Virus record (IMG/VR): IMGVR_UViG_3300042887_005170
Source of the DNA: an uncultured virus (IMG/VR IMGVR_UViG_3300042887_005170)
Taxonomy: Duplodnaviria > Heunggongvirae > Uroviricota > Caudoviricetes
Length of the DNA stretch: 64,000 nt
Strand: one strand, 5' to 3'
Positions 2,916 to 52,179 of the stretch are shown here, in pieces. Below the pieces are notes generated by a model. The model was not told where the DNA came from, searched no databases, and saw only the letters and a list, made by a program, of their open reading frames with translations. Every line of letters begins with the position of its first letter. Within the stretch, counting starts at the first letter, position 1. The position numbers were made by a program, and so were the translations under genes.

Positions 2916-4004
2916 TCAGTAGCCTCTGCGGCTGTAGTAGTCGCCGTAGGCGGAGTCGATTGTGTCAGGGTTAGGTGTGCGCTTTCTAATGCGGCGCACG
3001 ATTTCCGGCCCACCAAGATCGTCAGTCTCAAGCATTCTAGCGGGCGGACGAAGCTGTCCTCCCTGCGCATACCTGCTGTGATGGATCTTCATTTTACGGG
3101 CGAGCTTTTCTAGAGCGTCGACAAGCTCTCCCCTTGATCCGGCGAGTTCGCCTCTGCCGTATTGAGCAGGTCTCATTCTAAGCTCTCTGATTGCTGCCTC
3201 TCTGACCATGCCCTTTGCCATAAGATCAGCGATGGCCAGCGAAGCTTCCTCGAAGCGCTGCTCTACAGGGGCCGTGCCGATCGCTCCAGAGAATTGAACA
3301 GCAGATAGAATAAGAACAATTAACTGAGCGGCTAAGTTAGAGGCCAGCGCGGTCCTCTCTTTAGAGAGAGTGTCGCGCGACTCAAATTCCATTGAGAGTT
3401 CCTCAGCGGCCGTGCAGTAGGCTATTGCGAGGTCGAGCACTGAGATAGAGAGCTTCTTTACTATTTTATTGGCTTTAATTTTGTTAGCCTCGAGCGCGAT
3501 CTCAACAACCTCGCGTCTCTTTTTTTCTTTAAAGGCTCTGACGCCGTTGGAATCAGTGGGGTAGTCAGGGTACTTCTTCCGCGCCTCTACCTCGGCTGCA
3601 AGGATCGGGTCATGGCTGACTCCGTCCCTGGCTTCGGTATCTTTTTCTTTACTCAAAAAGTAGTCTCTAAGTCCTCGAGCGCTTCGCGTATAGCCTTCAA
3701 GGGAGGCGACATTATCGAGAGCCAGCTCTTCATCGCGCTCCGAGATCTTTAACGTCTCTCGGCTCTCGCCCTCTAAGCTTACTGCAATAGGGACAACATG
3801 TGCCGCAATGTAAGAGGCCATCATGTAGACTCTGTCTATCTCAGGGCGCGGAGCGTCAGAGCTGCCGGCAAGAGAGTCACGAAGCGCATTGATCACTTCT
3901 GCAGGGACCTGGCCTTCATTGCGAGAGAGACTGCGGACAAGCTCGCTCAGGAAAACGCTTTCTCTTTCGCCAGGGTTTGCGTGTCGGCTGCTGTGTGATG
4001 TCAT
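2916..4004 (-). CDS. Hypothetical helical protein with RHANP and RTPNP motifs
   Basis: 362-aa ORF, GAGG RBS. Confidence 0.75.
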   Translation of the reverse strand: MTSHSSRHANPGERESVFLSELVRSLSRNEGQVPAEVINALRDSLAGSSDAPRPEIDRVYMMASYIAAHVVPIAVSLEGESRETLKISERDEELALDNVASLEGYTRSARGLRDYFLSKEKDTEARDGVSHDPILAAEVEARKKYPDYPTDSNGVRAFKEKKRREVVEIALEANKIKANKIVKKLSISVLDLAIAYCTAAEELSMEFESRDTLSKERTALASNLAAQLIVLILSAVQFSGAIGTAPVEQRFEEASLAIADLMAKGMVREAAIRELRMRPAQYGRGELAGSRGELVDALEKLARKMKIHHSRYAQGGQLRPPARMLETDDLGGPEIVRRIRKRTPNPDTIDSAYGDYYSRRGY

Positions 4005-4124
4005 GTGGCCTCAGTGTCTCAGTAAAACAATGCCATAGCCTAGCTAGCTAAAGCTTATAGTCAAGCAATTGGGTTTAATTCTATTTTAGACTTTGTCTCT
4101 AAGCTATTTCCCAAAGCCTGGCTA

Positions 4125-4424
4125 CTATCGGCCATAGCCGCGACGATGGTAGTAGCCTGGGTTCGGGGCGCGGCTAGGCGCCGCAAATCTCTCCGAGAGC
4201 ACATTTTGGAGCTTGAGCTTCTTATAGAAGTTAGGCGTCTTATGCGTCCTATGAAATCCCATTTTAATCTCTTCGAGCACGAGCGCTTGTAGCATGTCCT
4301 CGAGTTCGTCCGTGCTCAAGGCCTCCAGGTCTTCATATTCCGCGATCTCTCCTTCTAGGAAAGAGATCTGCCTTTTTAATTCTTTAATATTGGCCTGTAT
4401 GCTTTTGATCGAAGCCGAATGCAT
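4125..4424 (-). CDS. Coiled-coil protein with RAPNP motif and GYYHRRGYGR tail
   Basis: 99-aa ORF, GGAGGTG RBS. Confidence 0.75.
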   Translation of the reverse strand: MHSASIKSIQANIKELKRQISFLEGEIAEYEDLEALSTDELEDMLQALVLEEIKMGFHRTHKTPNFYKKLKLQNVLSERFAAPSRAPNPGYYHRRGYGR

Positions 4425-4513
4425 TAAATCACCTCCGTGATCTTAATAAAAAATTGCTTGTAGATAAGAGACCAAGACTAACTTAAAAACTGAAACAGTC
4501 AAATGTGGTAGGC

Positions 4514-7500
4514 TCATCTTCGAGGCCTGCCGGGCAGTGCTACTATTGGGATAGTTATATAGCCCATGCTGCGCCACTCCTCTATCACACGGGCGCACTC
4601 GGGGATCTCTTCGGCATACTTAGGATAAGTAAGACCTACGATCTGCGCTTCGTCGCCGTTGATGAAGGCCTCTTTATGATGGTCAGGCCTGACCTCGAAC
4701 CTGTTGGGCATGAGTCGGCCGAAAACATCTACCGTGCTCCAGACATCGTCTGCGAAAAGCTCAGCCACGCCGTCCATGATGACGCCGAATATTCTGCCCC
4801 CTCGATAGAAGCGTTCCTCGGCATCGCTGTATGGCGAGACACAGAGCTCTCCGTGATACTCAAACTGAGGCTCATCTGTCTGGTGTATCCATAGCCCTTC
4901 AACAAAGCCGATGTAGGCTCCGGCTTCTATAGCACGCTGGCGCTTCTCTACATGTATGTGATCTAGCCATGCGCGGAAAACATTAAGAACAGAGTCTTTG
5001 TTTTCTTCTAGGCCTGAGCAATTATTCCTTTTGGCATAAGCTAAAACCTCAATGATGCCAGGGGTAACTGCCTGTGCATACCTATAGTCTGAGCGTATCT
5101 CTTTGACCCAATCCATAACCTCTTCTGAGTTGAGGTTGAACTTGGCTCCAGTGAAGTCTGAGTCGGCAATAAATAGCTGCGACACCTCGACGCCGCTTAG
5201 ATCGGCACCACGAAAGTTAATGCCTCGCTGCGGCAATGGGGTGCCGCGTATACGCGCATCGCGAAGATCTGCATCCTCAAATATGGCCCCGTCCATAGGG
5301 CAGGAGCTTATGTCTGCGCCAGCCATATTGGCGTCTTTAAAAATAGCTCCGCTCAGATCTGCCCCGGCAAACTTTGCGTCCTCTAGATTTGCGCCTGTGA
5401 AATCAGCGCCAGAGAAATTCAGACATATATCATAGCGATTATTTCTAAAGTCAGCGCCTCGCAGATCCATGCCGCTAAAGTCGACACCGGAGAAGTCTCC
5501 GCTATCTATATCGACGCCTGACCCCATATCGTACTCGAAGCCGTCTGCGCCCCTTATCTCAGGGTTCTTTCTTCTATACTTAGAGACCTTGCGCGCAATC
5601 TTCTTAGGCTGCGGAATGAACTGCGCGCCCGTGCGCATCCCCGCTCGCTTGGCTCGTGAAGTCTCTTTATACTCTTCGTCTGAGAGAGCTTTGATGGCCT
5701 TAGCCGGAAGGTAGCGCTCGCCTGTCTCCAGCGAAGCGCGTCCGCTCTTGGTGCGCCAATCTTGGACGGTCCACTTGTGAAGAGAGTTATCTTTACTCTT
5801 TTTACCTATGTAGCCACCGCCCGCTTCTTTGTACTGGGCCACGGCGAGCTGCGCCTTTCTAGCGCTCCATTGCCCCGGCCGCCCTCCCTTAGAGCCAGCA
5901 GTTATCTTTTTAACGATCTTCTGCCAGAGGGCTTCGTTGGTCCGCTTGGCGGAGACCCTGGGGTTGGGCTCGCGTGAGTCGTCGTCCTCGAGGGCATCCT
6001 CTAGCATCTCCTCCTCTTCTTCCTCTTCGTCCTCCATGATCTCTTCGTACCGAGTGCCGCGCTGGCTGGCTATGAAGGCTGCCATTGCTCTTAGTTCATC
6101 CTCTCTGAGCTTTTCTAATCCAGCAAAGTCAGGAGCTCCGAAGCCTATGCTATTAAGTCTATCTCTAAACGCATCGCGCTCTTCCGCTCGCTCCTCTTCT
6201 GTCATGCTCTCTCTGCGAGCGAGCTCTTCCATGCGCATCTGTTCGATTTCTTTCTTAGTGAAGTAGGCGAGCACGCCTAGCCGGGCGCGCTCGAGCCTTT
6301 CTCTTATTGCGGCATAGCGTATTCGTCTGCTTTCGTTGACTACCGCGCGCTCCTCGGGGGTCATAGCGGCCCTGCGCTCGCGTCTATTTTCGTTAAATGC
6401 CGCGCGCTCCTCTGGGGTCATAGCCCTGTGTTTTTCTACATGATCTAGGCGCTGTTTTTCGTTATAGGCCGCTCGCTGCTCTGGCGTCATGGCGGCGCGG
6501 AATCGTTGCATTCTCTGACGCTCGCTTTCCTTATGGGCCTCCCTCTCCTCAGGGCTCATTGCGTCCAGTTTCCTATGAAAAGACCTGTATTTAATTTCGT
6601 TATCGGCCTTTCGCTCCTCCGGGGTCATAGCCGCTCGCCGATTACGCTCATGTTCTCTAAGCGCTTCTCGCTCCTCTGTGGGCATAGCCGCTAGCTTTCT
6701 AAGCCTTTTTTGGCGCTTGCCTTCAAGATAGTCCGCGCGTTGCTCTGGAGTAAGCGAGAGATGGCGCTGTCTGTCATACGCTGCCTTGGCCGCTTTCTGC
6801 TCAGGGGTCTTAGGCTTACTGGGGTTATCTTCCCGCAAGTCGTCGTCGAAGTCCTCTCCCATATGCTTCTGGATCGCCTTGATGTCGGCCTGATCCTTCT
6901 CTCGGTTGAGTGCCTTCTTGAACGCCAGCGTGGCCTGAAGGCTCGCGAACTGAACCCCATGCTCGATCTGCCTTGTCCCGATCGTAAACTTTGTGAGGCC
7001 GTGTCCGAGGTCATCGATGTTGCCTCCGCCATCGACCTCGTATTTGCCGTGGACCTCGTTGAACTTCTTATTACCCAGGCCCGGCACCACGATGTCAGCG
7101 TCCTTGAGCTCGGGGCGCAGACCGTGGAAGTACATAGCCGCCCCTGCCAGAAGGGCATACGGGGTGTCTTTGGGGAGGCCCTTGGAGACCAGGAAGGACT
7201 CCACAGACTTTTTCACCTCTCGCGCAACTTGAGGATCTGGCTTGTGCGGCGGCCTGGTCTGCTGAGCGGCGTCCTTCAGGTACGCCGACTGCTTTGCCGC
7301 CTTCTGCTCTGGCGTTAGGGCTCTGAATGCGGCCCGTTCTTCTGGCGTCATGGCGGCTCGACGTCTGCGCTCACTCTCAACGTTTCTGGCCTTCTGCTCT
7401 GGCGTCATGGCGGCCCGTCGTTTACGCTCGCGCTCAACGACGGCGGCCCTCTCCTCGGGTGTCTTAGGCTTCCCCGGGTTATACTCCCGAGAGTAGTCTA

Positions 7501-7612
7501 ACTCTCCGAACTCTTCGAAGAGTTCATCTAAAAGAGACTCTTCTTCTATCAGCTCCGGCCTACTGTAGGCGTCACCGATAGAGTAAAAGTGGTTAGGGTA
7601 GCGGAAGCTCAT
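4514..7612 (-). CDS. Modular 1032-aa protein: (M)TPEER repeats, nucleotidyltransferase-like domain, DUF5872-like domain, pentapeptide repeats
   Basis: ~13 TPE(E/Q)R repeats; AGAAMYFHGL..KDADIVV...REKDQADI; GSKGGRPGQWSARKAQ...GGGY; A(D/N)LxG/FxGAD pentapeptides. Confidence 0.85.
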   Translation of the reverse strand: MSFRYPNHFYSIGDAYSRPELIEEESLLDELFEEFGELDYSREYNPGKPKTPEERAAVVERERKRRAAMTPEQKARNVESERRRRAAMTPEERAAFRALTPEQKAAKQSAYLKDAAQQTRPPHKPDPQVAREVKKSVESFLVSKGLPKDTPYALLAGAAMYFHGLRPELKDADIVVPGLGNKKFNEVHGKYEVDGGGNIDDLGHGLTKFTIGTRQIEHGVQFASLQATLAFKKALNREKDQADIKAIQKHMGEDFDDDLREDNPSKPKTPEQKAAKAAYDRQRHLSLTPEQRADYLEGKRQKRLRKLAAMPTEEREALREHERNRRAAMTPEERKADNEIKYRSFHRKLDAMSPEEREAHKESERQRMQRFRAAMTPEQRAAYNEKQRLDHVEKHRAMTPEERAAFNENRRERRAAMTPEERAVVNESRRIRYAAIRERLERARLGVLAYFTKKEIEQMRMEELARRESMTEEERAEERDAFRDRLNSIGFGAPDFAGLEKLREDELRAMAAFIASQRGTRYEEIMEDEEEEEEEMLEDALEDDDSREPNPRVSAKRTNEALWQKIVKKITAGSKGGRPGQWSARKAQLAVAQYKEAGGGYIGKKSKDNSLHKWTVQDWRTKSGRASLETGERYLPAKAIKALSDEEYKETSRAKRAGMRTGAQFIPQPKKIARKVSKYRRKNPEIRGADGFEYDMGSGVDIDSGDFSGVDFSGMDLRGADFRNNRYDICLNFSGADFTGANLEDAKFAGADLSGAIFKDANMAGADISSCPMDGAIFEDADLRDARIRGTPLPQRGINFRGADLSGVEVSQLFIADSDFTGAKFNLNSEEVMDWVKEIRSDYRYAQAVTPGIIEVLAYAKRNNCSGLEENKDSVLNVFRAWLDHIHVEKRQRAIEAGAYIGFVEGLWIHQTDEPQFEYHGELCVSPYSDAEERFYRGGRIFGVIMDGVAELFADDVWSTVDVFGRLMPNRFEVRPDHHKEAFINGDEAQIVGLTYPKYAEEIPECARVIEEWRSMGYITIPIVALPGRPRR

Positions 7613-7616
7613 AGTG

Positions 7617-7853
7617 CTACTCGTAGAATTGCGCCTCGACGCTGGTCACGCGCTTGTCCAGCTCCTGGATGCTTTCTCTTAGGCCCTCAACCTCTTCAGT
7701 CTTAATCTGAAGGTCTTGCTCAAGCTGGATTGCTTTCTTTTCAGCCCGGTCCGCTTTGCGCTCTGCGACTACGAGCGCGGCTGTGGTCGTAAATGACCCG
7801 ATCACCGATACGATGAGCCAGAACTTTGTGCTTTTAACTAATTTGTTTTTCAT
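7617..7853 (-). CDS. N-terminal TM anchor + coiled-coil protein
   Basis: Likely start MKNKLV after AAGAGGA RBS; hydrophobic segment followed by heptads. Confidence 0.65.
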   Translation of the reverse strand: MKNKLVKSTKFWLIVSVIGSFTTTAALVVAERKADRAEKKAIQLEQDLQIKTEEVEGLRESIQELDKRVTSVEAQFYE

Positions 7854-7875
7854 GTTTGTCCTCTTGGGTTTGTTA

Positions 7876-8433
7876 CTATTCTTCGGTGCCGCCAAAGTCT
7901 ACGACAACATCGCCGATGCTGCAGGCAAGAACTAGGTTGAAGCCTCGGCGGTGCTTTCCTCGCTTCTCTTTGCACTTAAAGTCTTCTTTGAAGGTGTGCG
8001 TGAGCGTGTGCTCCTTCATAAAAGAATCTGGAATCTTCCTCTGTCCGGCTGGCGACCTAGCTCCCTTACTTTTGAACTCGCTCGCGTGGGGGTAGGGGAA
8101 GGCGCCTATGCTGCCTGAGTCGACGCCGAGGCTGCGTTTGTACTTGCCGTTAACGTAAGCCTCGTAGGTGCCGTCGCCACCGAAGTCCGCAGTGAAATAG
8201 AAACAGATGCCTGTCGCAACATCTTCGTACATGCCAGTCTTTTCGACAGGCGGAGTATATTTAGTACCGTAGAAAATTATATTTATGACCTCGTAGCTAT
8301 ATGAGTCCTCTTTGAGCTTGGACTGCAAATAGCAGAGGTCGCCGATGTAATACTTGCCGGCGGGGAGCTCTTTGATCTTTTTTATTGTGTAGTCTATGTA
8401 ATCGTCGACTATAATTTTATGTTTTTTGGCCAC
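7876..8433 (-). CDS. Conserved phage hypothetical protein
   Basis: GKYYIGDLCY...GGDGTY...GVDSGSIG motifs; GTG start with GGAG RBS. Confidence 0.75.
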   Translation of the reverse strand: MAKKHKIIVDDYIDYTIKKIKELPAGKYYIGDLCYLQSKLKEDSYSYEVINIIFYGTKYTPPVEKTGMYEDVATGICFYFTADFGGDGTYEAYVNGKYKRSLGVDSGSIGAFPYPHASEFKSKGARSPAGQRKIPDSFMKEHTLTHTFKEDFKCKEKRGKHRRGFNLVLACSIGDVVVDFGGTEE

Positions 8434-8485: not shown

Positions 8486-9154
8486 TTAGTTCCGCCAGAG
8501 GCCCACTACCTGGTACAGTGAGCCGTCAGACGTGAGCGAAATTATATTACCCGCATCTCTAATCGCTGCGGTGTATTCATCATAGGCTATGATTATGGGC
8601 ACAGGGGAAAATCCGCTGGAGGTCGACTGCTTGTAAGCCAGCGAAAGCGCGCTCACGGGCGAGGCAATTACTGGGCTGTTCGCAATACAAAAAACCTCTG
8701 TATACGTAGCTGCCCCTTCCGTCCCAGGCGGGACTACATTTCCCTGCGCAGGAAAGCCTGTGCAAAAAATGCCGGTGTCTGCTGTGTAACCAGAAAGAAC
8801 CTTTCCCTGGATGGGGATGGTAGCCAAAGTGCCGCCGCCGGGCGCTGTGGTTAAGAAGTCGACGCCGAGCGTATTTGCGGCTCCTGCCGAAAACTGCAAG
8901 TTTGTGTTCGTGTCGGTAGCTCGAAGTTCAAGAATGGCGGGGATATCGCTCGTGAACAATAGTAGATCAACGTAGCTCACATTATTCAGGTCTATGGTCG
9001 GAGTAATAGTATCCGGGGTAGTGAAGTTGCAGACTGTCGCCGTAAATGCGGACCAAGGGTAAAGCCCCTGCGCGTTCGCCGTTCCGGGCGATGCCGGGTC
9101 GGGGTAACGTTTGTAGGCGGTGCCGCCGAGGATTTTTTCTGTGCCTTGTGACAT
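8486..9154 (-). CDS. RYPDP-family beta-rich protein (paralog 1), putative structural
   Basis: LGGTAYKRYPDP..GLYPWS...YTAAIRDAGN..YQVVGLW. Confidence 0.85.
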   Translation of the reverse strand: MSQGTEKILGGTAYKRYPDPASPGTANAQGLYPWSAFTATVCNFTTPDTITPTIDLNNVSYVDLLLFTSDIPAILELRATDTNTNLQFSAGAANTLGVDFLTTAPGGGTLATIPIQGKVLSGYTADTGIFCTGFPAQGNVVPPGTEGAATYTEVFCIANSPVIASPVSALSLAYKQSTSSGFSPVPIIIAYDEYTAAIRDAGNIISLTSDGSLYQVVGLWRN

Positions 9155-9163
9155 TTTTAAACC

Positions 9164-9847
9164 TTAGCTGGTCCAGAGGCCTACGACCTGGTAGAGTGAC
9201 CCATCGCTCGCTTTTATTATGTTACCAGCATCCCTGATGGCCTCTGTGTAGGATCCATAAAGAATCATTACTGGAACGGGCGCAAAGGCGCTGCTTGCTG
9301 CCTGATCAAACGCGAGCGAAAGAGAGCTGCCGGGCGAGGCTATTACGGAGGAATTACTTAAACAAATAACCTCTGTATAAGTAGCGGCCCCTCCGCCGCC
9401 GCCAGGCACAAGAGATTCGCCCTGCGCAGGAAAGCCTGTGCAAAATACGTCCGCGCTCGGGCCCGTATAGCCGGCTAACACCTGCCCCTGATTAGTTATT
9501 GTTGCTGAGGTAGCCCCGCCTGGGGTCGTGAAAAGCTGTGGATAAGAAAGCGTGTTAGCTGCCGTCGAACTAGCTTGTAGGCTTGTTCCAGTAAGCACGC
9601 CCGTGTCTGTGGTTCTTACCTGCAATATCGCGGGGACATCACTGGTAAACAAAAGAAGATATACGGGGGCGTTTAGGCCTTCGTATGGGTTAGGCTTAGC
9701 CCCAGGCTCCGCGTAATCGCAAAGAGGCGCCTTGAACACAGACCACGGGTAGAGCCCTTGAGCGTTAGCCGTTCCGGGCGATGCCGGGTCCGGGTAACGC
9801 TTATAGGCGGTGCCGCCGAGGATTTTTGTTGTGCCTTGTGTGGCCAC
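9164..9847 (-). CDS. RYPDP-family protein (paralog 2)
   Basis: Same N- and C-terminal motifs. Confidence 0.85.
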   Translation of the reverse strand: MATQGTTKILGGTAYKRYPDPASPGTANAQGLYPWSVFKAPLCDYAEPGAKPNPYEGLNAPVYLLLFTSDVPAILQVRTTDTGVLTGTSLQASSTAANTLSYPQLFTTPGGATSATITNQGQVLAGYTGPSADVFCTGFPAQGESLVPGGGGGAATYTEVICLSNSSVIASPGSSLSLAFDQAASSAFAPVPVMILYGSYTEAIRDAGNIIKASDGSLYQVVGLWTS

Positions 9848-9902
9848 GCTTAGCTCCAGTTCGTGTTACTATCTTTAGCCGTTGGCTTTAAGGGCGGCAT
9901 TG

Positions 9903-10613
9903 TTACAGAGGGGCTAGAGGGAACCAAAGACCCACTACCACATACGAAACGGATGTGAACGCGCCGACAGGATCGGCGCAAGTTATCACATTATTGTTGG
10001 CTTTGATAGCGTCTGTGTAGTCAGTGCTTTTGAGGATGATGGGGGTGACACCCGTTCCGGTCTTCGATACAGGGAAGCTCTTTCGCGCGTCGCTCCCGGA
10101 GATTGGTGAATTTATTACGGGCCCGTTGGCTAGGGCCTCGACAAACAGGGCGTAATCATCCGGCGGAGGCTCGATGGGGACAAATAAGTACAAATACACC
10201 AGGAAGCCGGTGCAGTAAACATCGCTAGCGGCTCCGGTGTAGCCTTTAGCAACCTCGCCGAAAGTATTAAGTTCTACATTAGTGGTGCCGCCCGGCTGCG
10301 TAACAAGACCTTGCACCCCTAGCTCGAATGACAGTACGGCATCACCGTCTGAGTAGTAGAAGGGGCCGCCGGCATCGAGCCCCGCTCTAACGATAGAAGG
10401 CGCGTCGCTCAAGAACAATAATCCGTTGCTTTTTCCTACATCCGCAATCCCGGTAGCCTGAATGACCCCGTCCCCGTCAAACTGACCGAGCCGCGCCCGG
10501 AACGAGCTCCAGGGATAAAGCCCGTACTCGTTGGGGAGGTTGCTCACATTCGGGTCCGGGTAACGCTTATAGGGCGTCCCGCCGAGGATTTTTTCTGTGC
10601 CTTGTGTGGCCAT
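9903..10613 (-). CDS. RYPDP-family protein (paralog 3)
   Basis: Same motifs. Confidence 0.85.
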   Translation of the reverse strand: MATQGTEKILGGTPYKRYPDPNVSNLPNEYGLYPWSSFRARLGQFDGDGVIQATGIADVGKSNGLLFLSDAPSIVRAGLDAGGPFYYSDGDAVLSFELGVQGLVTQPGGTTNVELNTFGEVAKGYTGAASDVYCTGFLVYLYLFVPIEPPPDDYALFVEALANGPVINSPISGSDARKSFPVSKTGTGVTPIILKSTDYTDAIKANNNVITCADPVGAFTSVSYVVVGLWFPLAPL

Positions 10614-10630
10614 GCCATGCCTCGTTAAGG

Positions 10631-42377: not shown

Positions 42378-42381
42378 CCAC

Positions 42382-42409: not shown

Positions 42410-42410
42410 A

Positions 42411-43434: not shown

Positions 43435-43444
43435 GGGATAGTAT

Positions 43445-43738
43445 ATGTCCGACAAAAAAGACGAAGACAAAGCCCAGGAACGAGATATCGTCACAAAAGA
43501 CATGGTCGAAGATGCACGCGCGGAGCTCGTGAGCGCCCAGTCTTTTTATGAGAGCTGTATCGCGGCTAGAAAAACAGCTGTATCCGAGACAGAAAAAGCC
43601 AGAAGCACGCTCGGCTCCCTCGAAGCGCTGCTGCAGCAGACAATTATTTTGGAAGGAGAGGCAAAAAGGCGGGTTCTTGAGTTTAAAGACAGGTATCTCG
43701 CTTTAGTCCTTGCACAATCTAAAGAGTTAGACAGTTAG
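43445..43738 (+). CDS. Coiled-coil hypothetical protein
   Basis: 97-aa ORF. Confidence 0.65.
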   Translation: MSDKKDEDKAQERDIVTKDMVEDARAELVSAQSFYESCIAARKTAVSETEKARSTLGSLEALLQQTIILEGEAKRRVLEFKDRYLALVLAQSKELDS

Positions 43739-43805
43739 CTTTCTTGCGCTGCGCATCTTATGTGCTATTATGTCGCGGCTTAAGATTAAACTCTAAGAGG
43801 TCTAC

Positions 43806-44810: not shown

Positions 44811-44846
44811 TAAAATTAGTAACCTCAACTACCCCAAGAAGAGAAC

Positions 44847-45185
44847 ATGACCCAAGATAAGCTTTTAGCCTTAGGCAAGAAGGCCGCGCGCGCTCGGCGC
44901 TGGCAGTGGCTTCCTGGTATGCTCACCGTCGGCGGCTTTCGAGTCATGGACGCTCCTCCGGAGCAACCCGCCACCCCAGATTTCTCAGACCCCGCAACCT
45001 TTGGCGGGCTTGTCGCCATTTTCAGAGCCACAGGCAACGATTTCTATCTACGTCCGGCTTTCAATGAAGCAGACAATCAGATATGGGAGGTCGGCTACAA
45101 GGACGGCACAGAGTACGTTTGGAGTGTTTTCTCGGGCGATACGCAGCTCGAGGCCCTTATCTCAGCCCTGGTGAATCTACAATGA
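44847..45185 (+). CDS. WxWxPGM/DPAT family (paralog 3)
   Basis: WQWLPGM...PDFSDPATFGGL...TQLEALISAL. Confidence 0.8.
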   Translation: MTQDKLLALGKKAARARRWQWLPGMLTVGGFRVMDAPPEQPATPDFSDPATFGGLVAIFRATGNDFYLRPAFNEADNQIWEVGYKDGTEYVWSVFSGDTQLEALISALVNLQ

Positions 45186-45343
45186 ACAGAAGAGAAGATA
45201 GATTGGAGAGCCTTCGAGAGCAGCGCAGAGCCCTTGAGCGTTTTTTGCTCGCAGGGGCCTATCTTAAGCCCGAGACGCTGAATGACTTCAAGGACCGACT
45301 AAAGAATGTCGAGGAAGAGATAAAAAATACTGAAAATTTTTAA
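45182..45343 (+). CDS. Small helical-hairpin protein
   Basis: MNRREDRLESLREQ..., coupled to the upstream stop. Confidence 0.6.
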   Translation: MNRREDRLESLREQRRALERFLLAGAYLKPETLNDFKDRLKNVEEEIKNTENF

Positions 45344-45355
45344 AAGAGGTATGCC

Positions 45356-45514
45356 GTGGCTACTAGAGAAGAGCAGCTGGAGTTTTATAAGCAGCAGAGA
45401 GATTATGTTTTAGCTGAGCTGGCAGACCCAAACACCCCTGAGTACGCAAAGCCAGCCCTGCGCTACCGGATAGAGTTTTTAGATTTTCAAATTAAAAGTT
45501 TAGAGCTCGGCTAA
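45356..45514 (+). CDS. Small helical-hairpin protein (not in ORF track)
   Basis: GTG start after AGAGGT; MATREEQLEFYKQQRDYVLAEL...LELG*; resembles the previous ORF. Confidence 0.55.
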   Translation: MATREEQLEFYKQQRDYVLAELADPNTPEYAKPALRYRIEFLDFQIKSLELG

Positions 45515-45664
45515 TAGCCTATACTACCCCAACGAGAGCAGCCATGCCGGTAGCCCACACTCTACTAGCAGCCGCAGCGAGTCAAAATAACGACCCGCTG
45601 CTTCTGCTGTTTATGATTATCTTTTTTGTTTACGTTATTGTACTCATGCTTAGGGAGCTCTGAG

Positions 45665-46045
45665 ATGTCGTTAAATTATAAGAAGCTGATTGAGCTCGGC
45701 GTACGATGCACTAAGGCGCCCGCATGGCGCTGGGGGCCAGGAATGAAGACACTCACAGGCGCAAGAGTGCTTGACATTGAGAAAGACACTGGTATAGTGT
45801 GGGCCGCAAGTTACAAAGACAAACTCTTCGAGCTTGACCTCACCACAGAGCTGCCGGATTTGTCTGATTCTGCCACTCGAGGCTGTGTAGTTACTTTGAT
45901 TAGAGAGCGTCTAAAGTCTCCGAGCGCCTCTACCACCCTCATTGCAGGGTCCTGGCTAATCTCCATGGGCACTATTTTATTGATAGACCTAGGATACAAT
46001 ACAGAAGAAGAGGCAATCACTAGCGCTCTTCAGGACGACACTTAA
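45665..46045 (+). CDS. WxWxPGM/DPAT family (paralog 4)
   Basis: WRWGPGM...LPDLSDSATRGC...TEEEAITSAL. Confidence 0.8.
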   Translation: MSLNYKKLIELGVRCTKAPAWRWGPGMKTLTGARVLDIEKDTGIVWAASYKDKLFELDLTTELPDLSDSATRGCVVTLIRERLKSPSASTTLIAGSWLISMGTILLIDLGYNTEEEAITSALQDDT

Positions 46046-46056
46046 GGACAAAGACA

Positions 46057-46509
46057 ATGAATAAAGAGCTTCAGGATAAACTCTACAGCAAATACCCGGA
46101 CCTCTTCGCGCAGAAAGACCTACCGATGACGGTCACCGCCATGTGCTGGGGCATCGACACGGGAGATGGCTGGTACGATTTAATCGATAAGATGTGCGCA
46201 GACATCACGGCATATGTAGCCGCTAAAAAGGCCGAGCTTGGCGACATCTTCCCTAATATTGAGTTCTTCCAGGTAAAAGAGAAGTTTGGAATACTTAGGG
46301 TATACACCAACTATCACAACGAAGCGGTGGATCAGATTGTCCAAGCCGCCGCCGTACGCTCCAGGACTACCTGCTCTAACTGCGGCTCACCGGAAGCAAA
46401 AAACAGCCATATCGCACACTGGGTTCACACATACTGCACACCCTGCAGAGATGAGTACGTAAGACAGACAGGCCGCGAACAGGACCTCGATGAAGACGAC
46501 GACGATTAA
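46057..46509 (+). CDS. Conserved phage hypothetical protein (QVKEKFG family) with Zn ribbon
   Basis: GDGWYDLI...QVKEKFGILRVY...CSNCG...CTPC. Confidence 0.8.
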   Translation: MNKELQDKLYSKYPDLFAQKDLPMTVTAMCWGIDTGDGWYDLIDKMCADITAYVAAKKAELGDIFPNIEFFQVKEKFGILRVYTNYHNEAVDQIVQAAAVRSRTTCSNCGSPEAKNSHIAHWVHTYCTPCRDEYVRQTGREQDLDEDDDD

Positions 46510-46729
46510 ATTGTGACTAACTTGTTTTGATGTAGTTTAGATAAATAGCCCTGTCGCTAGCCTGTAGAGAGGCCAACATGAAAATGCTCCTGTATATACC
46601 TACTAGCGCCACTATTAATGACTACGCCACTGCTGCTTACATACTCTTAGTTTTGTACTGGGTTATCTGGGCTCTGTTTCCGGCTTCGGAGCATGAAAAT
46701 AAAAACACTGAGTCCTAGGAGCAGAAATT

Positions 46730-47122
46730 ATGGATAATGCAGAGTTAATCGATGAGATTTATGAAAGGTCCCTCGCCGAGCGCGCCATTGTCTGCAAGGG
46801 GTGGATTTGGGGAGCCGGTATGCTTGTCTCATTGCCTCCTGAGAAAGGGAGCGAGAAGAGAACAACTCGGCGCCTAGTCGACGGGGAGTCAGTAAGTGCT
46901 AAATCCGGCGTTCTTCCTGTCCTGCGTGACGCCCCTACTCGCGGATGTCTTTTGGCGATTGTACGAAGAGCCTACAACGCAGACGTGCTCGTTGTCCCCG
47001 ACGTGACTTCGAGAACGTCACCTAGCTGGAGAATTTTAGCCAAGAAAGGCCTTGAGAAGAAACTGTATGCAACGGAGGCCGAGGCCTTAGTGGCAGCTTT
47101 GGAGGCAGCTAATGGGGACTAA
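46730..47122 (+). CDS. WxWxPGM/DPAT family (paralog 5)
   Basis: RAIVCKGWIWGAGM...DAPTRGCLL...TEAEALVAALE. Confidence 0.8.
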   Translation: MDNAELIDEIYERSLAERAIVCKGWIWGAGMLVSLPPEKGSEKRTTRRLVDGESVSAKSGVLPVLRDAPTRGCLLAIVRRAYNADVLVVPDVTSRTSPSWRILAKKGLEKKLYATEAEALVAALEAANGD

Positions 47123-47516
47123 TTACTACATGAGGAAGGGCGAGTGGTTGCCCGAAGTTTCCGATTGGGGCCACCCGCTGTATGGCCTTATCCGAGATGG
47201 GTCGGGCCGTCCTGCGCAGATCCACATCGGCAAGTCGAGTTTCGGTTGGTGCTTCTCGCTCCATGTGATCCCCGAGCAAGGCATTAGCAATCTGCGCGAT
47301 TGGAAGGCGTTGGTTGAGCGGCTACTCGCAGACGGTTGGCGCATCGAGGACGAGTACCGAGAAATCATCGCGCTTGACGAACTGTGGAAGATTGTTGAGC
47401 GGGTCGATTGGGAACGGCAGTACGGAAGGCCGCTCAATCGGCACGATGTTGACGGCGACCACTGCATCGGCCACGGCGAGGGTCTTTATGATTACGTCGT
47501 CGGCGACTTCTCCTAA
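47112..47516 (+). CDS. Conserved phage hypothetical protein
   Basis: MGTNYY...HIGKSSFGWCFSL...IEDEY...GDFS. Confidence 0.75.
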   Translation: MGTNYYMRKGEWLPEVSDWGHPLYGLIRDGSGRPAQIHIGKSSFGWCFSLHVIPEQGISNLRDWKALVERLLADGWRIEDEYREIIALDELWKIVERVDWERQYGRPLNRHDVDGDHCIGHGEGLYDYVVGDFS

Positions 47517-47530
47517 CATCAGGAACAACA

Positions 47531-47896
47531 ATGACCCCTATTGAGTTTACCATCTTAGCAAACCGAGCAATTGCCTGCCCTAAGTGGCAGTGGCTTCCTG
47601 GAATGCATGTGATCTGCCCGCCAAAGCACGATGGCTCTACCGGATTTTTTGTCCGGGTAGATAGCGAGGACTGGCTCGCATCGCCCACAGATCTTCCTAA
47701 CTTTTACGACGGATGCACCCTCGGCGGGATGCTAGCTCTGGTCCGTAAAGCGTGGAACGACAGCAAGGCACACGTATCTCCCGTCACCCCAGGGGATACA
47801 TGGTGTGTTACAATTAAGCACGACATGGGCCATAAGTGGTTCTACGGAGCCACGGAGGCCGAAGCCCTCATTGCAGCCTTGGAGACCGCGCCGTGA
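47531..47896 (+). CDS. WxWxPGM/DPAT family (paralog 6)
   Basis: RAIACPKWQWLPGM...TEAEALIAALETAP. Confidence 0.8.
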   Translation: MTPIEFTILANRAIACPKWQWLPGMHVICPPKHDGSTGFFVRVDSEDWLASPTDLPNFYDGCTLGGMLALVRKAWNDSKAHVSPVTPGDTWCVTIKHDMGHKWFYGATEAEALIAALETAP

Positions 47897-48147
47897 TCAC
47901 CTCAGCACACAACAGCTCCCTTAATCTTGATGTTTACCTCACGCCACAGAGCGCGATAATGGCGTCCATCGAAGGCGCCGGCAAGATCGTAGCCCTCCCC
48001 TGGAGCCACGATAACTGGACGCATCTCTTTGAGAACGCGGGCTTTATCCGTCAGTTCACTGATGGAACATACTACGCCTCTCGGTCTAAAGAGCCGAGCT
48101 GGTGTGTAAAGCTCCTGCCCCGCGTTGCGAAGAATACAAACAGCTAA
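47893..48147 (+). CDS. Hypothetical protein
   Basis: GTGA overlap start. Confidence 0.5.
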   Translation: MITSAHNSSLNLDVYLTPQSAIMASIEGAGKIVALPWSHDNWTHLFENAGFIRQFTDGTYYASRSKEPSWCVKLLPRVAKNTNS

Positions 48148-48165
48148 CCCCAGCCAGGACACACA

Positions 48166-48651
48166 ATGGAAGAGATCTACGAATTTGAGACCCTCGCCCG
48201 CCGAGCCGTCGCCTGCAAACATTGGAAGTGGATGCCTGGCATGGCCGTTACGAGAAAAGATAACGACGTGATAGTCGACGATCGCTCAAAACTGTCGTTC
48301 AAAATAAGCGAGATTCGCGTCACCGCCGCCGCCTTTGAGGTCTGCGAGCCGCAACATCGTTTTGTGGACGTAGCAACGCTACTGAACGACAAAACGCGGA
48401 GTGTCGGCAGTATGTTCATAAAGGATCTGATCCCCGACCTCACCGACCCCGCCACACGCGGGTGTCTTCTTGAGCTTGTGAGGAAGGCGTGGAAACAGCC
48501 GAGCATCTCGACCCGCTATTCTGAGTACCAGGACCGCGTTGAGTGGGACGTACCTACGCCGGTAGAACAAGAAAGAATGCTTGATATTGTCTTTTTCACA
48601 GGCAAGACCGAAGCCGAAGCTCTGGTCGCTGCGCTCGAAGCCGCGCCTTGA
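48166..48651 (+). CDS. WxWxPGM/DPAT family (paralog 7)
   Basis: LARRAVACKHWKWMPGM...PDLTDPATRGCLL...TEAEALVAALEAAP. Confidence 0.85.
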   Translation: MEEIYEFETLARRAVACKHWKWMPGMAVTRKDNDVIVDDRSKLSFKISEIRVTAAAFEVCEPQHRFVDVATLLNDKTRSVGSMFIKDLIPDLTDPATRGCLLELVRKAWKQPSISTRYSEYQDRVEWDVPTPVEQERMLDIVFFTGKTEAEALVAALEAAP

Positions 48652-48674
48652 CCCCATCCGCGCCTATAAAACAC

Positions 48675-48702
48675 TTGACGGGCTTATATAAGTGGCTATA
48701 GT
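48675..48702 (+). promoter_or_regulatory. Sigma70-like promoter for tRNA-Tyr
   Basis: TTGACG-N16-TATAGT, 10 bp before the tRNA. Confidence 0.6.
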
Positions 48703-48712
48703 CGCCACTGCC

Positions 48713-48794
48713 GGGAGCATCGCATAGCGGCAATTGCAGGAGGCTGTAAACTTCCCGACTTCGGTCTACGATGGTTCGAGTCCATCTGCTCCCA
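48713..48794 (+). tRNA. tRNA-Tyr(GTA)
   Basis: GGGAGCA/TGCTCCC acceptor; GGAGG-CTGTAAA-CTTCC; long variable arm; GGTTCGAGTCC. Confidence 0.92.
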
Positions 48795-48818
48795 CTACCA
48801 TGACAGCGCGAGGACAAG

Positions 48819-49214
48819 ATGAGTGAACTGTCAAGGAATCCTTCTGAGTTGGAGACCCTCGCCCGCCGAGCCGCCTCCTGCAAGCACTTCCGATGGATGC
48901 CGGGTATGATAGCCTCGTTTGAGTCCTGGGCATGGCGCATCGGAAATGGCGAGGAGGTCAAAGGAGATTTTTTGCCCGACCTGCTTGACCCAGCTACGGT
49001 AGGCTGCCTGCTCGCAATGGCGAGAGTGGCCTGGGCCGAAAACCTAGGAAAAGGCGCTGTACCGTCTACAGTACAGACTCCTACCGGGTGGGGCGTCGGA
49101 GCTCAGTTCAGCAACGAAGGCTTTTCTTATATTGTTCTACCTAATCACCCTAACGAAGCGTCGGCCTTAGTCGCAGCGCTGGAGTCGGCGCCATCAGCTA
49201 AGGAGAAAAAATGA
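48819..49214 (+). CDS. WxWxPGM/DPAT family (paralog 8)
   Basis: LARRAASCKHFRWMPGM...PDLLDPATVGCLL...EASALVAALESAP. Confidence 0.85.
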   Translation: MSELSRNPSELETLARRAASCKHFRWMPGMIASFESWAWRIGNGEEVKGDFLPDLLDPATVGCLLAMARVAWAENLGKGAVPSTVQTPTGWGVGAQFSNEGFSYIVLPNHPNEASALVAALESAPSAKEKK

Positions 49215-49489
49215 GCAAGGAACACCCGCATAAAAAGTTTATTCTGGCCGAAGCGCATAAGTGTGTTAAGTCTCTGCGCTCTACTAGGGCCAAGTTAGAA
49301 AACGCAATAAAACAGGCAAACGACGCGGCTCAGGAAATTGCACACATGGACACTGTGAAAACAAACAGAATCCTAGATAAAGCCTGTGATATTATTACTG
49401 ATTCTTCAATAAAAATTGCACAGATAGAGATTTCGCTAAAGAGAGCACTAAAGCTCATAGAGGAATTGGAGAGTGAGGACAATGACTAG
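49211..49489 (+). CDS. Coiled-coil hypothetical protein
   Basis: AAGGAG RBS. Confidence 0.65.
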   Translation: MSKEHPHKKFILAEAHKCVKSLRSTRAKLENAIKQANDAAQEIAHMDTVKTNRILDKACDIITDSSIKIAQIEISLKRALKLIEELESEDND

Positions 49490-49853
49490 CCCTATGAAGT
49501 GGTACAACTGCCCAAAGTGTGATGCCGGATACCTAGACCAGGCCTGTACCTGTGCCTCTGAGACTAAGAAGCTTAAAGGCGAAAACCTTAGCCAGGACAA
49601 TTGGGACACTATGAACACATTTGTAGAAGAGCTTAATTTTCTCTGGAAAGAGTATGCGCTCGCCGACGACAGCACTCTCACAGAAGACGCAAAAGAGCTA
49701 AAGAGGCAGCTTTTGGCCGCCGTCAGAGAGTCCACGGACGCAGCTTACTACAAAGGAATGAGAGACGGCGTCGAGGAATACAAGAAAGCCTTTGCCGCAG
49801 GCTTTGCGGTGGGGCTGGAAGAGAGAGCGCGTCTCGCGGCAGAAAAGAAGTAG
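49482..49853 (+). CDS. Hypothetical protein with CPKC..CTC motif
   Basis: GAGG RBS. Confidence 0.65.
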   Translation: MTSPMKWYNCPKCDAGYLDQACTCASETKKLKGENLSQDNWDTMNTFVEELNFLWKEYALADDSTLTEDAKELKRQLLAAVRESTDAAYYKGMRDGVEEYKKAFAAGFAVGLEERARLAAEKK

Positions 49854-50062
49854 CTAACCTTGTTCTAAAATTGGGGCGGACTAATGAGAATCTTTAAAGA
49901 AAAAGCCGGAATCCTCGCAGACGAGGCTGTCTGGGTCTGTATTTACCCAGGATATCTCCACGCAGACGCGAGCTTAATAAGGCTTCTCTGGGAAGTATTA
50001 ACCGAGTACAAGAGAGACAAGCACAGCATCTAAGACAGCGCAAATTACCCCAAGGAGAAGAC

Positions 50063-50263
50063 ATGGACCTTTTAGAGATCTTTTTAGCCGTTTCGTTTTT
50101 TCTAGTCGGCGCTATAACTTTTTTTTCTTTAATCGCTGCTCAATCTAAAGATTTCAAAGATTACCCGGAAATCTACACAGTCTCTATCTTCCTAGCAGTC
50201 ACATCCTTGGTATTTTTTGCCTTATCTGGCGCCACCGTCTACCTGGGACTAGCTTCTAAATAA
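50063..50263 (+). CDS. Small two-TM protein
   Basis: AAGGAG RBS; two hydrophobic helices. Confidence 0.65.
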   Translation: MDLLEIFLAVSFFLVGAITFFSLIAAQSKDFKDYPEIYTVSIFLAVTSLVFFALSGATVYLGLASK

Positions 50264-50406
50264 TACACTTGTGTTTCTGTGTGTAGTTTACTACGTGAAC
50301 CACAGAGATTCAGTTACCCCACCGAGATCGAATAATTAATACTTTCAGTGGCCAACTAGGCCTTTCTTGGAGCCGTAACAGGTAGTGTAGGGTTAAGGAG
50401 TGAGCT

Positions 50407-50820
50407 ATGTCTAACGAGTTTAAAGCAGATATGTCCCGTAGAGCCCTTCGTTGCAAAAGCTGGTCCTGGACGCCAGGGATGCTCGCCATGGATTTTATGA
50501 GCGAGGGCAATAACGAGATAGATACCGCTTACTATAAGCGACTCGACGATAGCACCGAGGAGGGAATGCGTGTTTCTCCCGCAGCTCTCCCCGTTATTAC
50601 TGATCACGCCACCCGCGGCTGTATGCTTGGGCTTATTCAGAGAGCAGCAGGCAACGAAACGGTCAGCCTTCAGTGCCTGGTAAAGGCGAACGGAAGCATC
50701 GAGTGGAGCGTCACCGGAGTCGCCGATGGCCGCCGCTTTTTCATCGGGGACGGCTCCACGATGGAGAACGCTCTGATTTCAGCGTTGGAGACTACGGGGA
50801 ATTCGAATGGCCGTCGATGA
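50407..50820 (+). CDS. WxWxPGM/DPAT family (paralog 9)
   Basis: RRALRCKSWSWTPGM...TDHATRGCML...ENALISALE. Confidence 0.8.
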   Translation: MSNEFKADMSRRALRCKSWSWTPGMLAMDFMSEGNNEIDTAYYKRLDDSTEEGMRVSPAALPVITDHATRGCMLGLIQRAAGNETVSLQCLVKANGSIEWSVTGVADGRRFFIGDGSTMENALISALETTGNSNGRR

Positions 50821-51028
50821 TTGCGTTTTAGAGGCCGATTCCTGGCCCTTTTCTGTAATCATCGAAGAGGGCAGCGCTCAGAGCTATTTTCTTAGCATCT
50901 ACGCCCGCGATGAGCTCCTTCACTCCGGAAAACACAGAACAGAAGACGAAGCCAGGCACTCAGCTCAGGTAGAAATTAAGAAGTACATCAACAGCCTCCA
51001 TGTACTAATAAACCTAGTTAGAGACTGA
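50807..51028 (+). CDS. Hypothetical protein
   Basis: Coupled ORF. Confidence 0.55.
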   Translation: MAVDDCVLEADSWPFSVIIEEGSAQSYFLSIYARDELLHSGKHRTEDEARHSAQVEIKKYINSLHVLINLVRD

Positions 51029-51396
51029 TGGCCAACAAGATGGACATCAGGTTCCTTCTTATGCAGATCTTCCCGGACGTATCCGAGAGAGCTGTCTACG
51101 AGGGGATGAAGTATATTCGACTTAGGTATAAGCTTAACGAGGAGGCCGTCGTTACAATGCTTTTCGCCGAGTACCAATCTCAGAGAGATAAGGTCAGCCC
51201 TAGGTATGCTGTCTACGATAGAAAGTACATGCCTGGAGAAGCTAATCTAAGGCGAGCTAGGTTTATAACAAACGTTAAGACCTCTAAAATCAGCGAGAGA
51301 GAGCACATCCGGCACTTTGATTTTACGATGGAAGGCCAGTCGGCGCTCAATGACATCTATAGGTACTTTGAGGGCTGCATTAAGAGCGGATATTGA
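51028..51396 (+). CDS. Hypothetical protein
   Basis: TGATG coupling. Confidence 0.65.
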   Translation: MANKMDIRFLLMQIFPDVSERAVYEGMKYIRLRYKLNEEAVVTMLFAEYQSQRDKVSPRYAVYDRKYMPGEANLRRARFITNVKTSKISEREHIRHFDFTMEGQSALNDIYRYFEGCIKSGY

Positions 51397-51511
51397 CATC
51401 TAAAAAAATAGGATAAGCCTAAATAGTATTTACAAGTTTAATATACTTGTTATATTTCGCTATGTAAGCCCTCATTGAGGCAAGCGAGGTACCCCTACAG
51501 ATGGATTTTAC

Positions 51512-51952
51512 ATGTCCGCTACGACTATGAATACCGACTACGAAGCAGATAGAAACTTAGCCATTAGGGCCATTAAGTGCTCTAACTTTAGATGGCTCCC
51601 CGGTATGCAGACAAGGGATGGCGATAGAGTCCTTATGATCAGCGGATCGGAGGATACCCCTAAGATCGCTCGTTGGCGAATGGGCGGAAACGAAGCCCCC
51701 TACATGAAGTCCGTTATCTGGAAGTTCGACGCCATCGGCGAAGAGGCGCTCCCTGATCTGGCGGACCCTGGGACTTTAGGCTGCCTACTTTCTCTCGTCC
51801 GAGAGCTGACTAGCGATATTGAAGCCTACATCGAGCGCCGGTCTGAAGGCACATACATGGGCTGGATGCTCTGGGCCAAAGGCCGTGGTTTTCACGCAGA
51901 CTCTGAGGCAGAGGCTTTAGTCTTGGCGCTTGAAGTCACGAGCAAGCATTAA
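51512..51952 (+). CDS. WxWxPGM/DPAT family (paralog 10)
   Basis: RAIKCSNFRWLPGM...LPDLADPGTLGCLL...SEAEALVLALE. Confidence 0.82.
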   Translation: MSATTMNTDYEADRNLAIRAIKCSNFRWLPGMQTRDGDRVLMISGSEDTPKIARWRMGGNEAPYMKSVIWKFDAIGEEALPDLADPGTLGCLLSLVRELTSDIEAYIERRSEGTYMGWMLWAKGRGFHADSEAEALVLALEVTSKH

Positions 51953-51957
51953 CTCAT

Positions 51958-52179
51958 TTAGCGCCTAGCTTTTCTCTTCTTCCTGCGACGCGGGTTAGAG
52001 ATCCTAGAGTAGAGCGGTGTTACGTGTTTATTCCACGCGCCCTTAGCCACTATATAGATAATACCAGCCACTAATACGCCCCCAATAAGGAATACCATCT
52101 TAGCGGATTCCTTAGGGTCACTATCTCTAGACATTAAAATAGTTTTAGTAGCATCATCTAAGAGATTATCCTCAGCCAT
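51958..52179 (-). CDS. Small TM protein with RISNP motif and basic tail
   Basis: TM helix then RISNPRRRKKRKARR; AAGGA RBS. Confidence 0.7.
   Translation of the reverse strand: MAEDNLLDDATKTILMSRDSDPKESAKMVFLIGGVLVAGIIYIVAKGAWNKHVTPLYSRISNPRRRKKRKARR

Follow-up and report, generated by a model that had tools for sequence, protein, structure and literature searches.

R-x-x-N-P as a candidate punctuation signal at module joints and termini of otherwise unrelated proteins of an uncultured tailed phage

The prohead protease of phage T4, gp21, removes capsid-targeting leaders at the consensus L/I-x-E, and the adenovirus protease cuts many virion precursors at a short consensus, (M/I/L)-x-G-x-G or -G-G-x. 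In the asparagine peptide lyases, an Asn side chain attacks its own carbonyl, as in the NPTH sequence of FlhB/YscU/EscU and at Asn42-Pro43 of reovirus mu1 (MEROPS N6 and N7), and an Asn-Pro pair also forms part of the 2A 'StopGo' consensus, D-V/I-E-x-N-P-G-P. A further class, the polyvalent proteins of phages and conjugative elements, is described in the passages that we consulted of Iyer et al. (2017; PMC5512222) as combining several unrelated effector-type domains in each polypeptide, with extensive module shuffling. The same passages propose processing into separate units by a built-in zincin-like MPTase domain, and they contain no description of a junction motif. Here we report on a stretch of 64,000 nucleotides (the window) from an uncultured virus of the Caudoviricetes, IMG/VR record IMGVR_UViG_3300042887_005170, in which the five-residue sequence R-x-x-N-P, hereafter the seam, recurs at the joints between modules and near the ends of otherwise unrelated proteins. 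The best explanation that we can offer is that R-x-x-N-P would be a lineage-specific punctuation signal, acting at the protein level at the joints of swappable modules and near protein ends, and it is very probable that it has been selected for some function as a signal.

Like the polyvalent proteins in the consulted passages of Iyer et al. (2017), proteins of the window place unrelated effector-type domains in one phage polypeptide and show module shuffling. For example, the 1032-residue product of gene 4514-7612 contains DUF5872, pentapeptide repeats and two helical modules, and the product of gene 25635-26606 contains an AAA_33 kinase and pentapeptide repeats. Metagenomic, module-sharing relatives of the 1032-residue protein carry ART-PolyVal (P0151, expectation value (E) 4e-47; P0282, E 1e-47) or InPase (P0124, E 2e-39), as identified with Pfam; both domains take their names from the polyvalent proteins. 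Unlike the polyvalent proteins in those passages, the seam is also found in small single-module proteins, and no MPTase was found in the window. Judged by sequence, the window proteins work like polyvalent proteins and share modules; we do not file them as proven members, because Pfam detected none of the hallmark domains (MPTase, ART-PolyVal, InPase, LPD domains or the methyltransferase-helicase dyad) in the window's own proteins. The resemblance to the T4 and adenovirus systems lies in a short consensus that recurs near the termini of unrelated proteins, where in those systems a protease trims leaders or short basic peptides. In those systems the marks are at termini, whereas here every joint of a multi-module chain is marked as well, and the consensus differs. 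As in precursors cut at a protease consensus, a short sequence recurs in the window at both the joints and the termini of several proteins.

Other short sequence signals were considered. 2A-like skipping was rejected, as a single site of the 14 reads NPGP (RAANPGP, in gene 26633-27238) and the upstream consensus is missing from all of them; sortase-type sorting signals and NPxY motifs were rejected on sequence. In the full-text literature that we searched, no account was found of Asn-Pro or R-x-x-N-P as a junction motif of phage proteins. The kind of protein, polyvalent or precursor-type, is already known, and the junction code is something that we could not find in print within the scope of that search.

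An earlier note on this stretch, written from the letters alone, had listed 14 R-x-x-N-P sites, and a six-frame scan recovered every one of them, position and strand included, in eight otherwise unrelated minus-strand genes. The two variants that it mentioned, RGNP in gene 14918-16039 and SVPNP at the N-terminus of 30249-30725, are present too. Twelve of the 14 sites fall in two three-gene clusters (2916-7612 and 25635-28136), and half of the carriers are small and have their seams at the termini. The curated set comprised 89 proteins (18,943 amino acids), and R-x-x-N-P occurs in it 15 times, against 1.95 expected from 3,000 within-protein shuffles (standard deviation 1.40, maximum 9) and 2.22 expected from composition alone; the note's rough estimate had been about 14 seen against a couple by chance. 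The fifteenth site, which the note had overlooked, is RRVNP in 60041-60910 on the plus strand, a member of a family of 11 paralogues, and we count it as chance because a paralogue reads RQVSP at the equivalent place. The dipeptide NP itself occurs about as often as expected (41 against 42.5). Arg occupies position -3 in 15 of these 41 pairs (binomial, 1e-9) and Lys in none, and Arg precedes NP once at -1, four times at -2 and once at -4.

Among approximately 120,000 gapped three-residue patterns, R..NP ranks eighth (P 1.2e-8), behind patterns that trace to a Trp-rich family of small paralogous genes, to an Ala/Leu pattern and to an open reading frame with PEP repeats. When the plus-strand RRVNP and one member of an internal-repeat pair are set aside, the remaining 13 independent sites against 1.95 give a P of 1.6e-7, which becomes 0.019 after multiplication by 120,000 patterns. 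The sites are also unevenly divided between the strands, with 14 against 1.29 expected in the 38 minus-strand proteins and 1 against 0.93 expected in the 51 plus-strand proteins, and the near-absence of the motif from the small-gene region at 40-51 kilobases (kb), pointed out in the note, agrees with the plus-strand count. Six of the 14 sites lie no more than 20 residues from a terminus, where 2.4 would be expected (P 0.011). The suggestion that the signal is genome-wide did not hold: it is confined to the eight minus-strand genes, and other multi-domain proteins lack it, among them a PG_binding plus CHAP protein (12051-12827), a resolvase (19907-20608) and a protein with a double winged helix-turn-helix (39715-40452). 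What stood is a selected signal at joints and termini, conserved and operating at the peptide level, as would be expected of a recognition signal.

The codons used support the last point. Over the 14 sites, five of the six Arg codons occur (CGA, CGC, CGG, AGA and AGG) and the wobble base of the Pro codon takes all four letters (T, A, G and C), and the constraint therefore acts on the peptide and not on the DNA; a DNA-level element was rejected on this codon diversity. Asn is encoded by AAC in 13 of 14 sites, compared with 55% in the genes of the window. The 30-residue flanks of any two sites have on average 1.9 of 25 positions in common. The only related pair of flanks, around REYNP and REDNP within the 1032-residue protein (9 of 30 residues identical), represents an internal repeat. 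The residue after NP may be G, D, S, R, E, V or P.

The protein with the most seams is the 1032-residue product of gene 4514-7612, whose parts are as follows (pLDDT, predicted local distance difference test, is from the AlphaFold model).

4514-7612, minus strand: modular protein of 1032 residues with four seams, at residues 42, 260, 547 and 680
Residues 1-41: leader, followed by REYNP
7475-7489, minus strand: REYNP seam, residues 42-46, kept in the 141-residue homologue P0161; within a stretch, 1-48, of pLDDT below 50
6836-7474, minus strand: helical module, residues 47-259, followed by REDNP
6821-6835, minus strand: REDNP seam, residues 260-264, in coil 259-269 between helices 220-258 and 270-286
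5975-6820, minus strand: helical repeat module, residues 265-546, followed by REPNP
5960-5974, minus strand: REPNP seam, residues 547-551, directly before DUF5872; within a stretch, 543-553, of pLDDT below 50
5576-5959, minus strand: DUF5872 module, residues 552-679, followed by RRKNP
5561-5575, minus strand: RRKNP seam, residues 680-684, directly after the DUF5872 module
4517-5560, minus strand: pentapeptide repeats and C-terminal part, residues 685-1032

The placement of the motif at module joints and termini, as the note had described it, is borne out by domain matches, by the end points of homologue alignments and by two AlphaFold models. The Pfam family PF19197 (DUF5872) matches residues 552-679 of the 1032-residue protein (E 3.3e-7), so that REPNP precedes and RRKNP follows the unit that the note had seen flanked by the motif, and the pentapeptide repeats (Pentapeptide, E 3.6e-23) start after residue 685. 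PHROG matches likewise end at the seams, with phrog_14910 covering residues 604-681. A HMMER search with residues 1-689 returned 1,415 proteins, and in the best 150 of the 1,415, 145 alignments cover the DUF5872 unit alone (median start 554, median end 682); in this set, only eight alignments run through a seam with over 15 residues on each side of it. In the AlphaFold model, built from a 33-row alignment and with a mean pLDDT of 63, each of the four seams falls in coil, with confident blocks on either side. Besides the low values at seams 1 and 3, block means are 65-69 in the coil around seam 2 and 46-51 over residues 681-700 around seam 4, falling below 50 from residue 687. Homologues keep SREPNP at the C-terminal end of P0171 and P0210, and at the RRKNP joint they read R[KR]NP, RNP or RKVNP.

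The remaining ten sites are distributed over seven further carriers.

2916-4004, minus strand: 362-residue protein, family unassigned, with RHANP at residues 7-11 (nucleotides 3972-3986) and RTPNP at residues 342-346 (nucleotides 2967-2981)
4125-4424, minus strand: 99-residue coiled-coil-like protein with the C-terminal end SRAPNP GYYHRRGYGR; motif at nucleotides 4158-4172
17752-18555, minus strand: 267-residue protein with an N-terminal hydrophobic helix; RVANP at residues 63-67 (nucleotides 18355-18369)
25635-26606, minus strand: 323-residue protein, AAA_33 kinase (residues 28-155, Pfam) plus Pentapeptide repeats
26082-26096, minus strand: RTPNP of the 323-residue protein, residues 171-175, between kinase and pentapeptide repeats
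25656-25670, minus strand: RSSNP of the 323-residue protein, residues 313-317, six residues from the end, with the tail GYRRAR
26633-27238, minus strand: 201-residue protein, family unassigned, with RAANP near the N-terminus (nucleotides 27206-27220)
27240-28136, minus strand: 298-residue protein in three parts, with the seams RVKNP and RTPNP
27765-27779, minus strand: RVKNP of the 298-residue protein, residues 120-124, after a conserved helical N-domain (1-119)
27360-27374, minus strand: RTPNP of the 298-residue protein, residues 255-259, after a hypervariable alpha/beta module (125-254) and before a hydrophobic C-terminal segment
51958-52179, minus strand: 73-residue membrane-helix protein with the C-terminal end SRISNP RRRKKRKARR; motif at nucleotides 51991-52005

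The note had proposed that conservation be sought in relatives, and the R, N and P of the seam are indeed kept in homologues. In the best-sampled family, that of the 298-residue protein, 27 sequences down to approximately 40% identity all have R120, N123 and P124 (27/27), while the x positions vary (five different residues at 121 and six at 122). At the second seam, R255, N258 and P259 are present in 26 of 27, the exception, P0307, having a different module. The same N-domain with its R-x-x-N-P precedes three different modules (in the query, P0307 and P0309). Over the 27 homologues, module 125-254 is hypervariable and the N-domain and the hydrophobic tail are conserved. In the kinase family, all seven homologues that continue beyond the kinase show R-x-x-N-P no more than a few residues from where it ends, and six stand-alone kinases terminate just short of the seam point; in the window's own protein, RTPNP lies after AAA_33 and before the repeats, where the note had placed it. 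The homologues P0011 and P0012, which are among the seven, have other partner modules, yet carry RRANP/RRRNP, RTSNP/RASNP and RLKNP at each joint, with GRRANP/GRRRNP following a His/Tyr/Gly-rich leader and RLKNP preceding the tail. Both homologues in the family of the 362-residue protein retain RKRTPNP across indels of at least 44 residues, although the tail of P0002 differs; P0002 alone covers the N-terminus, and it retains RHANP too. Judged from these alignments, the seam is under purifying selection in the homologues.

The 362-residue protein begins MTSHSS-RHANP and ends, after RTPNP, in a 16-residue Tyr/Arg/Gly-rich tail, DTIDSAYGDYYSRRGY. Neither this protein nor the 201-residue protein of 26633-27238 gave a usable match in a search of the ESM Atlas. 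For the latter, the start codon is the choice of the earlier note, and a TTG at 27304 would place the motif at residue 29. RVANP of 17752-18555 sits in what appears to be a low-complexity stretch. The peptides beyond the terminal seams are alike in composition, being rich in Tyr, Arg, Gly and His (GYYHRRGYGR, SAYGDYYSRRGY, GYRRAR and MHYGHGRYGHHYGR); those compared were the C-termini of 2916-4004, 4125-4424 and 25635-26606 and the N-termini of P0011 and P0012. This similar composition suggests that the tails may themselves serve a function, for instance in nucleic-acid binding or targeting.

AlphaFold modelled the 298-residue protein from a 27-row alignment with a predicted template modelling score of 0.82, and its second seam is a low-confidence coil before the hydrophobic tail. 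Taking the two models together, the seams are predicted to be junctions, though not every one is floppy. No significant match to this model, alpha/beta unit included, was found in the PDB by Foldseek, with nothing at E below 0.28.

The seam does not follow these domains everywhere. Twenty-six IMG/VR loci contain the N-domain of the 298-residue protein at 25-39% identity, joined there to other sequence, and none of the 26 has R-x-x-N-P at the end of the domain (one has RRNP 25 residues further on). No seam is present in L001, the kinase's match in IMG/VR (38% identity). In the cultured cyanophage S-CRES1, where DUF5872 is encoded by a stand-alone gene, three of the 54 NP pairs (43 expected) have Arg at -3. 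In 80 IMG/VR loci with DUF5872 (268,374 amino acids), Arg within -3 to -1 of NP shows a weak excess (115 against 81 expected), and no locus approaches the strength seen in the window (best P 2e-3). Since distant viruses have the same domains without the seam, the domains themselves do not need it. Among the 150 metagenomic representatives (55,833 amino acids; the best 150 of 1,415), R-x-x-N-P is enriched, with 55 occurrences against 7.9 expected. The joints of their DUF5872 units have NP in 36 of 84 cases downstream and 31 of 68 upstream (approximately 43-46%, against a background of 5.8%), mostly as R[KR]NP or RNP, which is a register other than R-x-x-N-P. On this distribution, the seam behaves like part of a system that would be present in some virus lineages, each with its own register.

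In cultured roseophages, most pelagiphages and a Methylophilales phage (ten phage records, H1-H10), the DUF5872 match falls in two pieces over at least two annotated open reading frames, as at 51242-51609 of MW514247.1. The domain may be split, frameshifted or interrupted in these phages.

How the seam might work is a separate question, and our tentative preference is for a processing-protease site. A trans-acting factor, most likely a processing protease of phage or host origin, would read the seam, and in doing so would separate the modules and trim the short Tyr/Arg/Gly-rich or basic terminal peptides, by analogy with the removal of leaders by the T4 prohead protease and the cutting of adenovirus precursors. 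We propose a trans-acting reader because Arg at -3 is strict, N and P are invariant, the seams lie at joints and termini, the tails are basic or rich in Tyr, Arg and Gly, and the motif is restricted to some lineages. In addition, one seam per joint, with seams near both termini, fits the release of every module better than it fits a single address tag.

Several observations weigh against this proposal. Seams that lie six residues from an N-terminus, or that are followed by a six-residue tail, would release peptides of no obvious use, and a docking motif accounts equally well for the terminal seams. Seam 1 of the 298-residue protein is modelled as a confident short loop (pLDDT approximately 90) between helix 113-118 and strand 125-133, to which a protease may have poor access. 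The virion location of the carriers is putative, being suggested by gene position, in a block with lysis-like, tail-lysozyme-like, CHAP and SLT genes. To our knowledge, few proteases cut at or beside Asn-Pro. A search for a protease, which the note had also proposed, recognised no peptidase family within the 64 kb of the window (Pfam and PHROGs, 88 proteins each; NCBIfam, 70 of 89). The protein of 2916-4004 is also recorded on a contig of 76,711 bases, and at least 12.7 kb of that contig therefore lies beyond the stretch searched. The only peptidase-fold matches are CHAP domains, of the peptidoglycan-hydrolase type, in 11295-12041, in 12051-12827 and, below the Pfam cut-off, in 52317-53069. 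A single zincin-type HxxEH motif was seen, at residue 227 of the 298-residue protein, and its first His is not conserved in homologues; Foldseek rows that pair the model of this protein with M16 peptidases are weak (E 0.3-1, template modelling score 0.11-0.18) and are not evidence. The 298-residue protein was rejected as a protease.

A seam that is never cut could be a short linear docking motif, through which a common partner (scaffold, portal, inner capsid, ejection machinery or chaperone) would load or guide the modules. Such a motif would typically hold R, N and P constant and leave the x positions free, and its lineage specificity, its retention even in single-module proteins 6-16 residues from their termini and the basic or Tyr/Arg/Gly-rich tails that adjoin it would all be accommodated. 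One tag per protein would do, however, yet every joint of the 1032-residue protein has one, and both the partner and the virion location of the carriers are hypothetical; we therefore regard docking as unlikely. Less likely still is a passive joint, in which a helix-breaking or helix-capping hinge would insulate the modules and tolerate their shuffling with no factor to read it. The coil in which seams lie between modules, the different modules that follow the same seam and the frequency of NP at DUF5872 joints of metagenomic proteins (approximately 43-46% against 5.8%) are all what such a hinge would produce. It would leave unexplained the strict Arg at -3 (15 of 41 against none for Lys) and the 27/27 conservation beside freely varying neighbors, and it fits poorly with seams at extreme termini, where nothing is joined, and with other viruses that fuse the same domains without a seam.

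Asn-Pro might also be cleaved without any protease, by the chemistry of the asparagine peptide lyases. In both cases the Asn-Pro pair is the possible scissile bond, in viral or injection-machine proteins; the pair is invariant here, the chemistry and its viral precedents are real, and searches with Pfam, PHROGs and NCBIfam revealed no protease in the window. The known lyases depend on a folded catalytic environment together with further conserved residues (the TH of NPTH, for example), whereas NP is here followed by any of the seven residues listed above and never by TH, the carriers are many and unrelated, and at least two seams of the 1032-residue protein lie in low-confidence coil (pLDDT below 50). 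Neither an NPTH turn nor homology to the mu1 fold or to any such family emerged from Pfam or from the fold search, and self-cleavage is accordingly a distinctly improbable account. Finally, the motif can hardly be an artefact of chance, composition or paralogy, or the translation of a DNA-level element such as a repeat, recombination site or regulatory site. Two of the sites do form an internal repeat, the plus-strand site is chance and the preference for AAC is marked. Against this, no shuffle among 3,000 reaches the observed count, the enrichment survives correction for approximately 120,000 patterns even with 13 independent sites, the flanks are unrelated, the Arg and Pro codons vary freely, and homologues as distant as 40% identity retain R, N and P.

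The window as a whole is phage-like, with few genes that can be annotated, and Pfam, PHROGs and NCBIfam detected no terminase, portal, capsid or protease family among its proteins. A minus-strand block at 2.9-38.7 kb contains two CHAP/peptidoglycan-binding proteins, an SGNH hydrolase, a serine recombinase and a tail-lysozyme-like protein, and plus-strand genes within or adjoining it include an SLT transglycosylase, an endonuclease-V-like protein and a DNA methylase. ThyX and LexA-type winged helix-turn-helix proteins are among the members of a plus-strand block of small genes at 39.7-52 kb. The best matches of the pentapeptide-repeat sequence beyond the phage's own lineage are in Microcystis, and matches to the HetL, Alr5209 and XisF models of NCBIfam were below threshold; because of both, there are hints of a possibly cyanobacterial host. 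Relatives of the phage itself were not found in two scans of metagenome contigs and one of genome contigs, nor did a DNA search of phage records with positions 2900-8000 of the window, or IMG/VR scans with the 1032-residue protein and the 11-member paralogue family, return any.

Several gene families of the window were observed in passing. The 11 paralogous genes, which encode proteins of 218-289 residues, lie at 8486-11293 (minus strand), 28162-28959 (minus strand) and 59352-63964 (plus strand). They have an N-terminal '..RYPDP..' and a C-terminal '..VVGL(W/Y)' motif and align to the first member with 27-66% identity; the family had no Pfam or PHROG match and no relatives in two collection scans. 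At 40893-51952 (plus strand), a family of small proteins (112-161 residues) has 'WxWxPGM' approximately 20 residues from the N-terminus, strictly in six members and by eye in about three more, and most members have a motif like 'EAEAL..ALE' near the C-terminus; this family is the source of the top-ranked Trp patterns in the motif statistics. The open reading frame 14082-14420 (plus strand), with 13 PEP tripeptides in a Pro/Glu repeat, overlaps minus-strand open reading frames at 14111-14466 and is a doubtful gene that raises the PEP count in the same statistics.

A block of low guanine-cytosine content at 32000-38700 (minus strand; 39-40%, against approximately 50% elsewhere) encodes three large paralogues of 530, 580 and 619 residues, which have an Asp/Cys-containing C-terminal motif in common and match no family; a protein search of phage records found no relatives of the 530-residue member. 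A looser form of this C-terminus occurs in 43806-44810 and 55328-56545 (both plus strand), again with no family match. The window also has three CHAP-domain proteins, 11295-12041 and 12051-12827, which are adjacent on the minus strand, and 52317-53069 on the plus strand. One of the three has a peptidoglycan-binding domain, and one has an N-terminal hydrophobic segment and a score under the Pfam cut-off.

It is tempting to speculate further, and with somewhat greater reserve than for a protease site in this phage, that several tailed-phage lineages use an Asn-Pro 'punctuation code', each in its own register (here strictly R-x-x-N-P), which would be read by a new class of protease or by assisted self-cleavage to yield a cocktail of effectors. 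The products would be the kinase, the DNA-mimic-like pentapeptide domain, DUF5872 and others, together with short basic peptides, and cutting could take place during virion maturation or after ejection. If this is true, it would represent polyprotein processing in the style of RNA viruses in phages with double-stranded DNA.

If the seams are cut, they would offer a simple sequence rule for dividing large 'hypothetical' phage proteins into functional units, would point to a protease specificity beside Asn-Pro that has not been described for phages, and would mark the proteins of an uncultured phage that share one pathway of delivery or processing. Even if they are not cut, a strictly conserved five-residue joint marks module boundaries for the annotation of polyvalent proteins.

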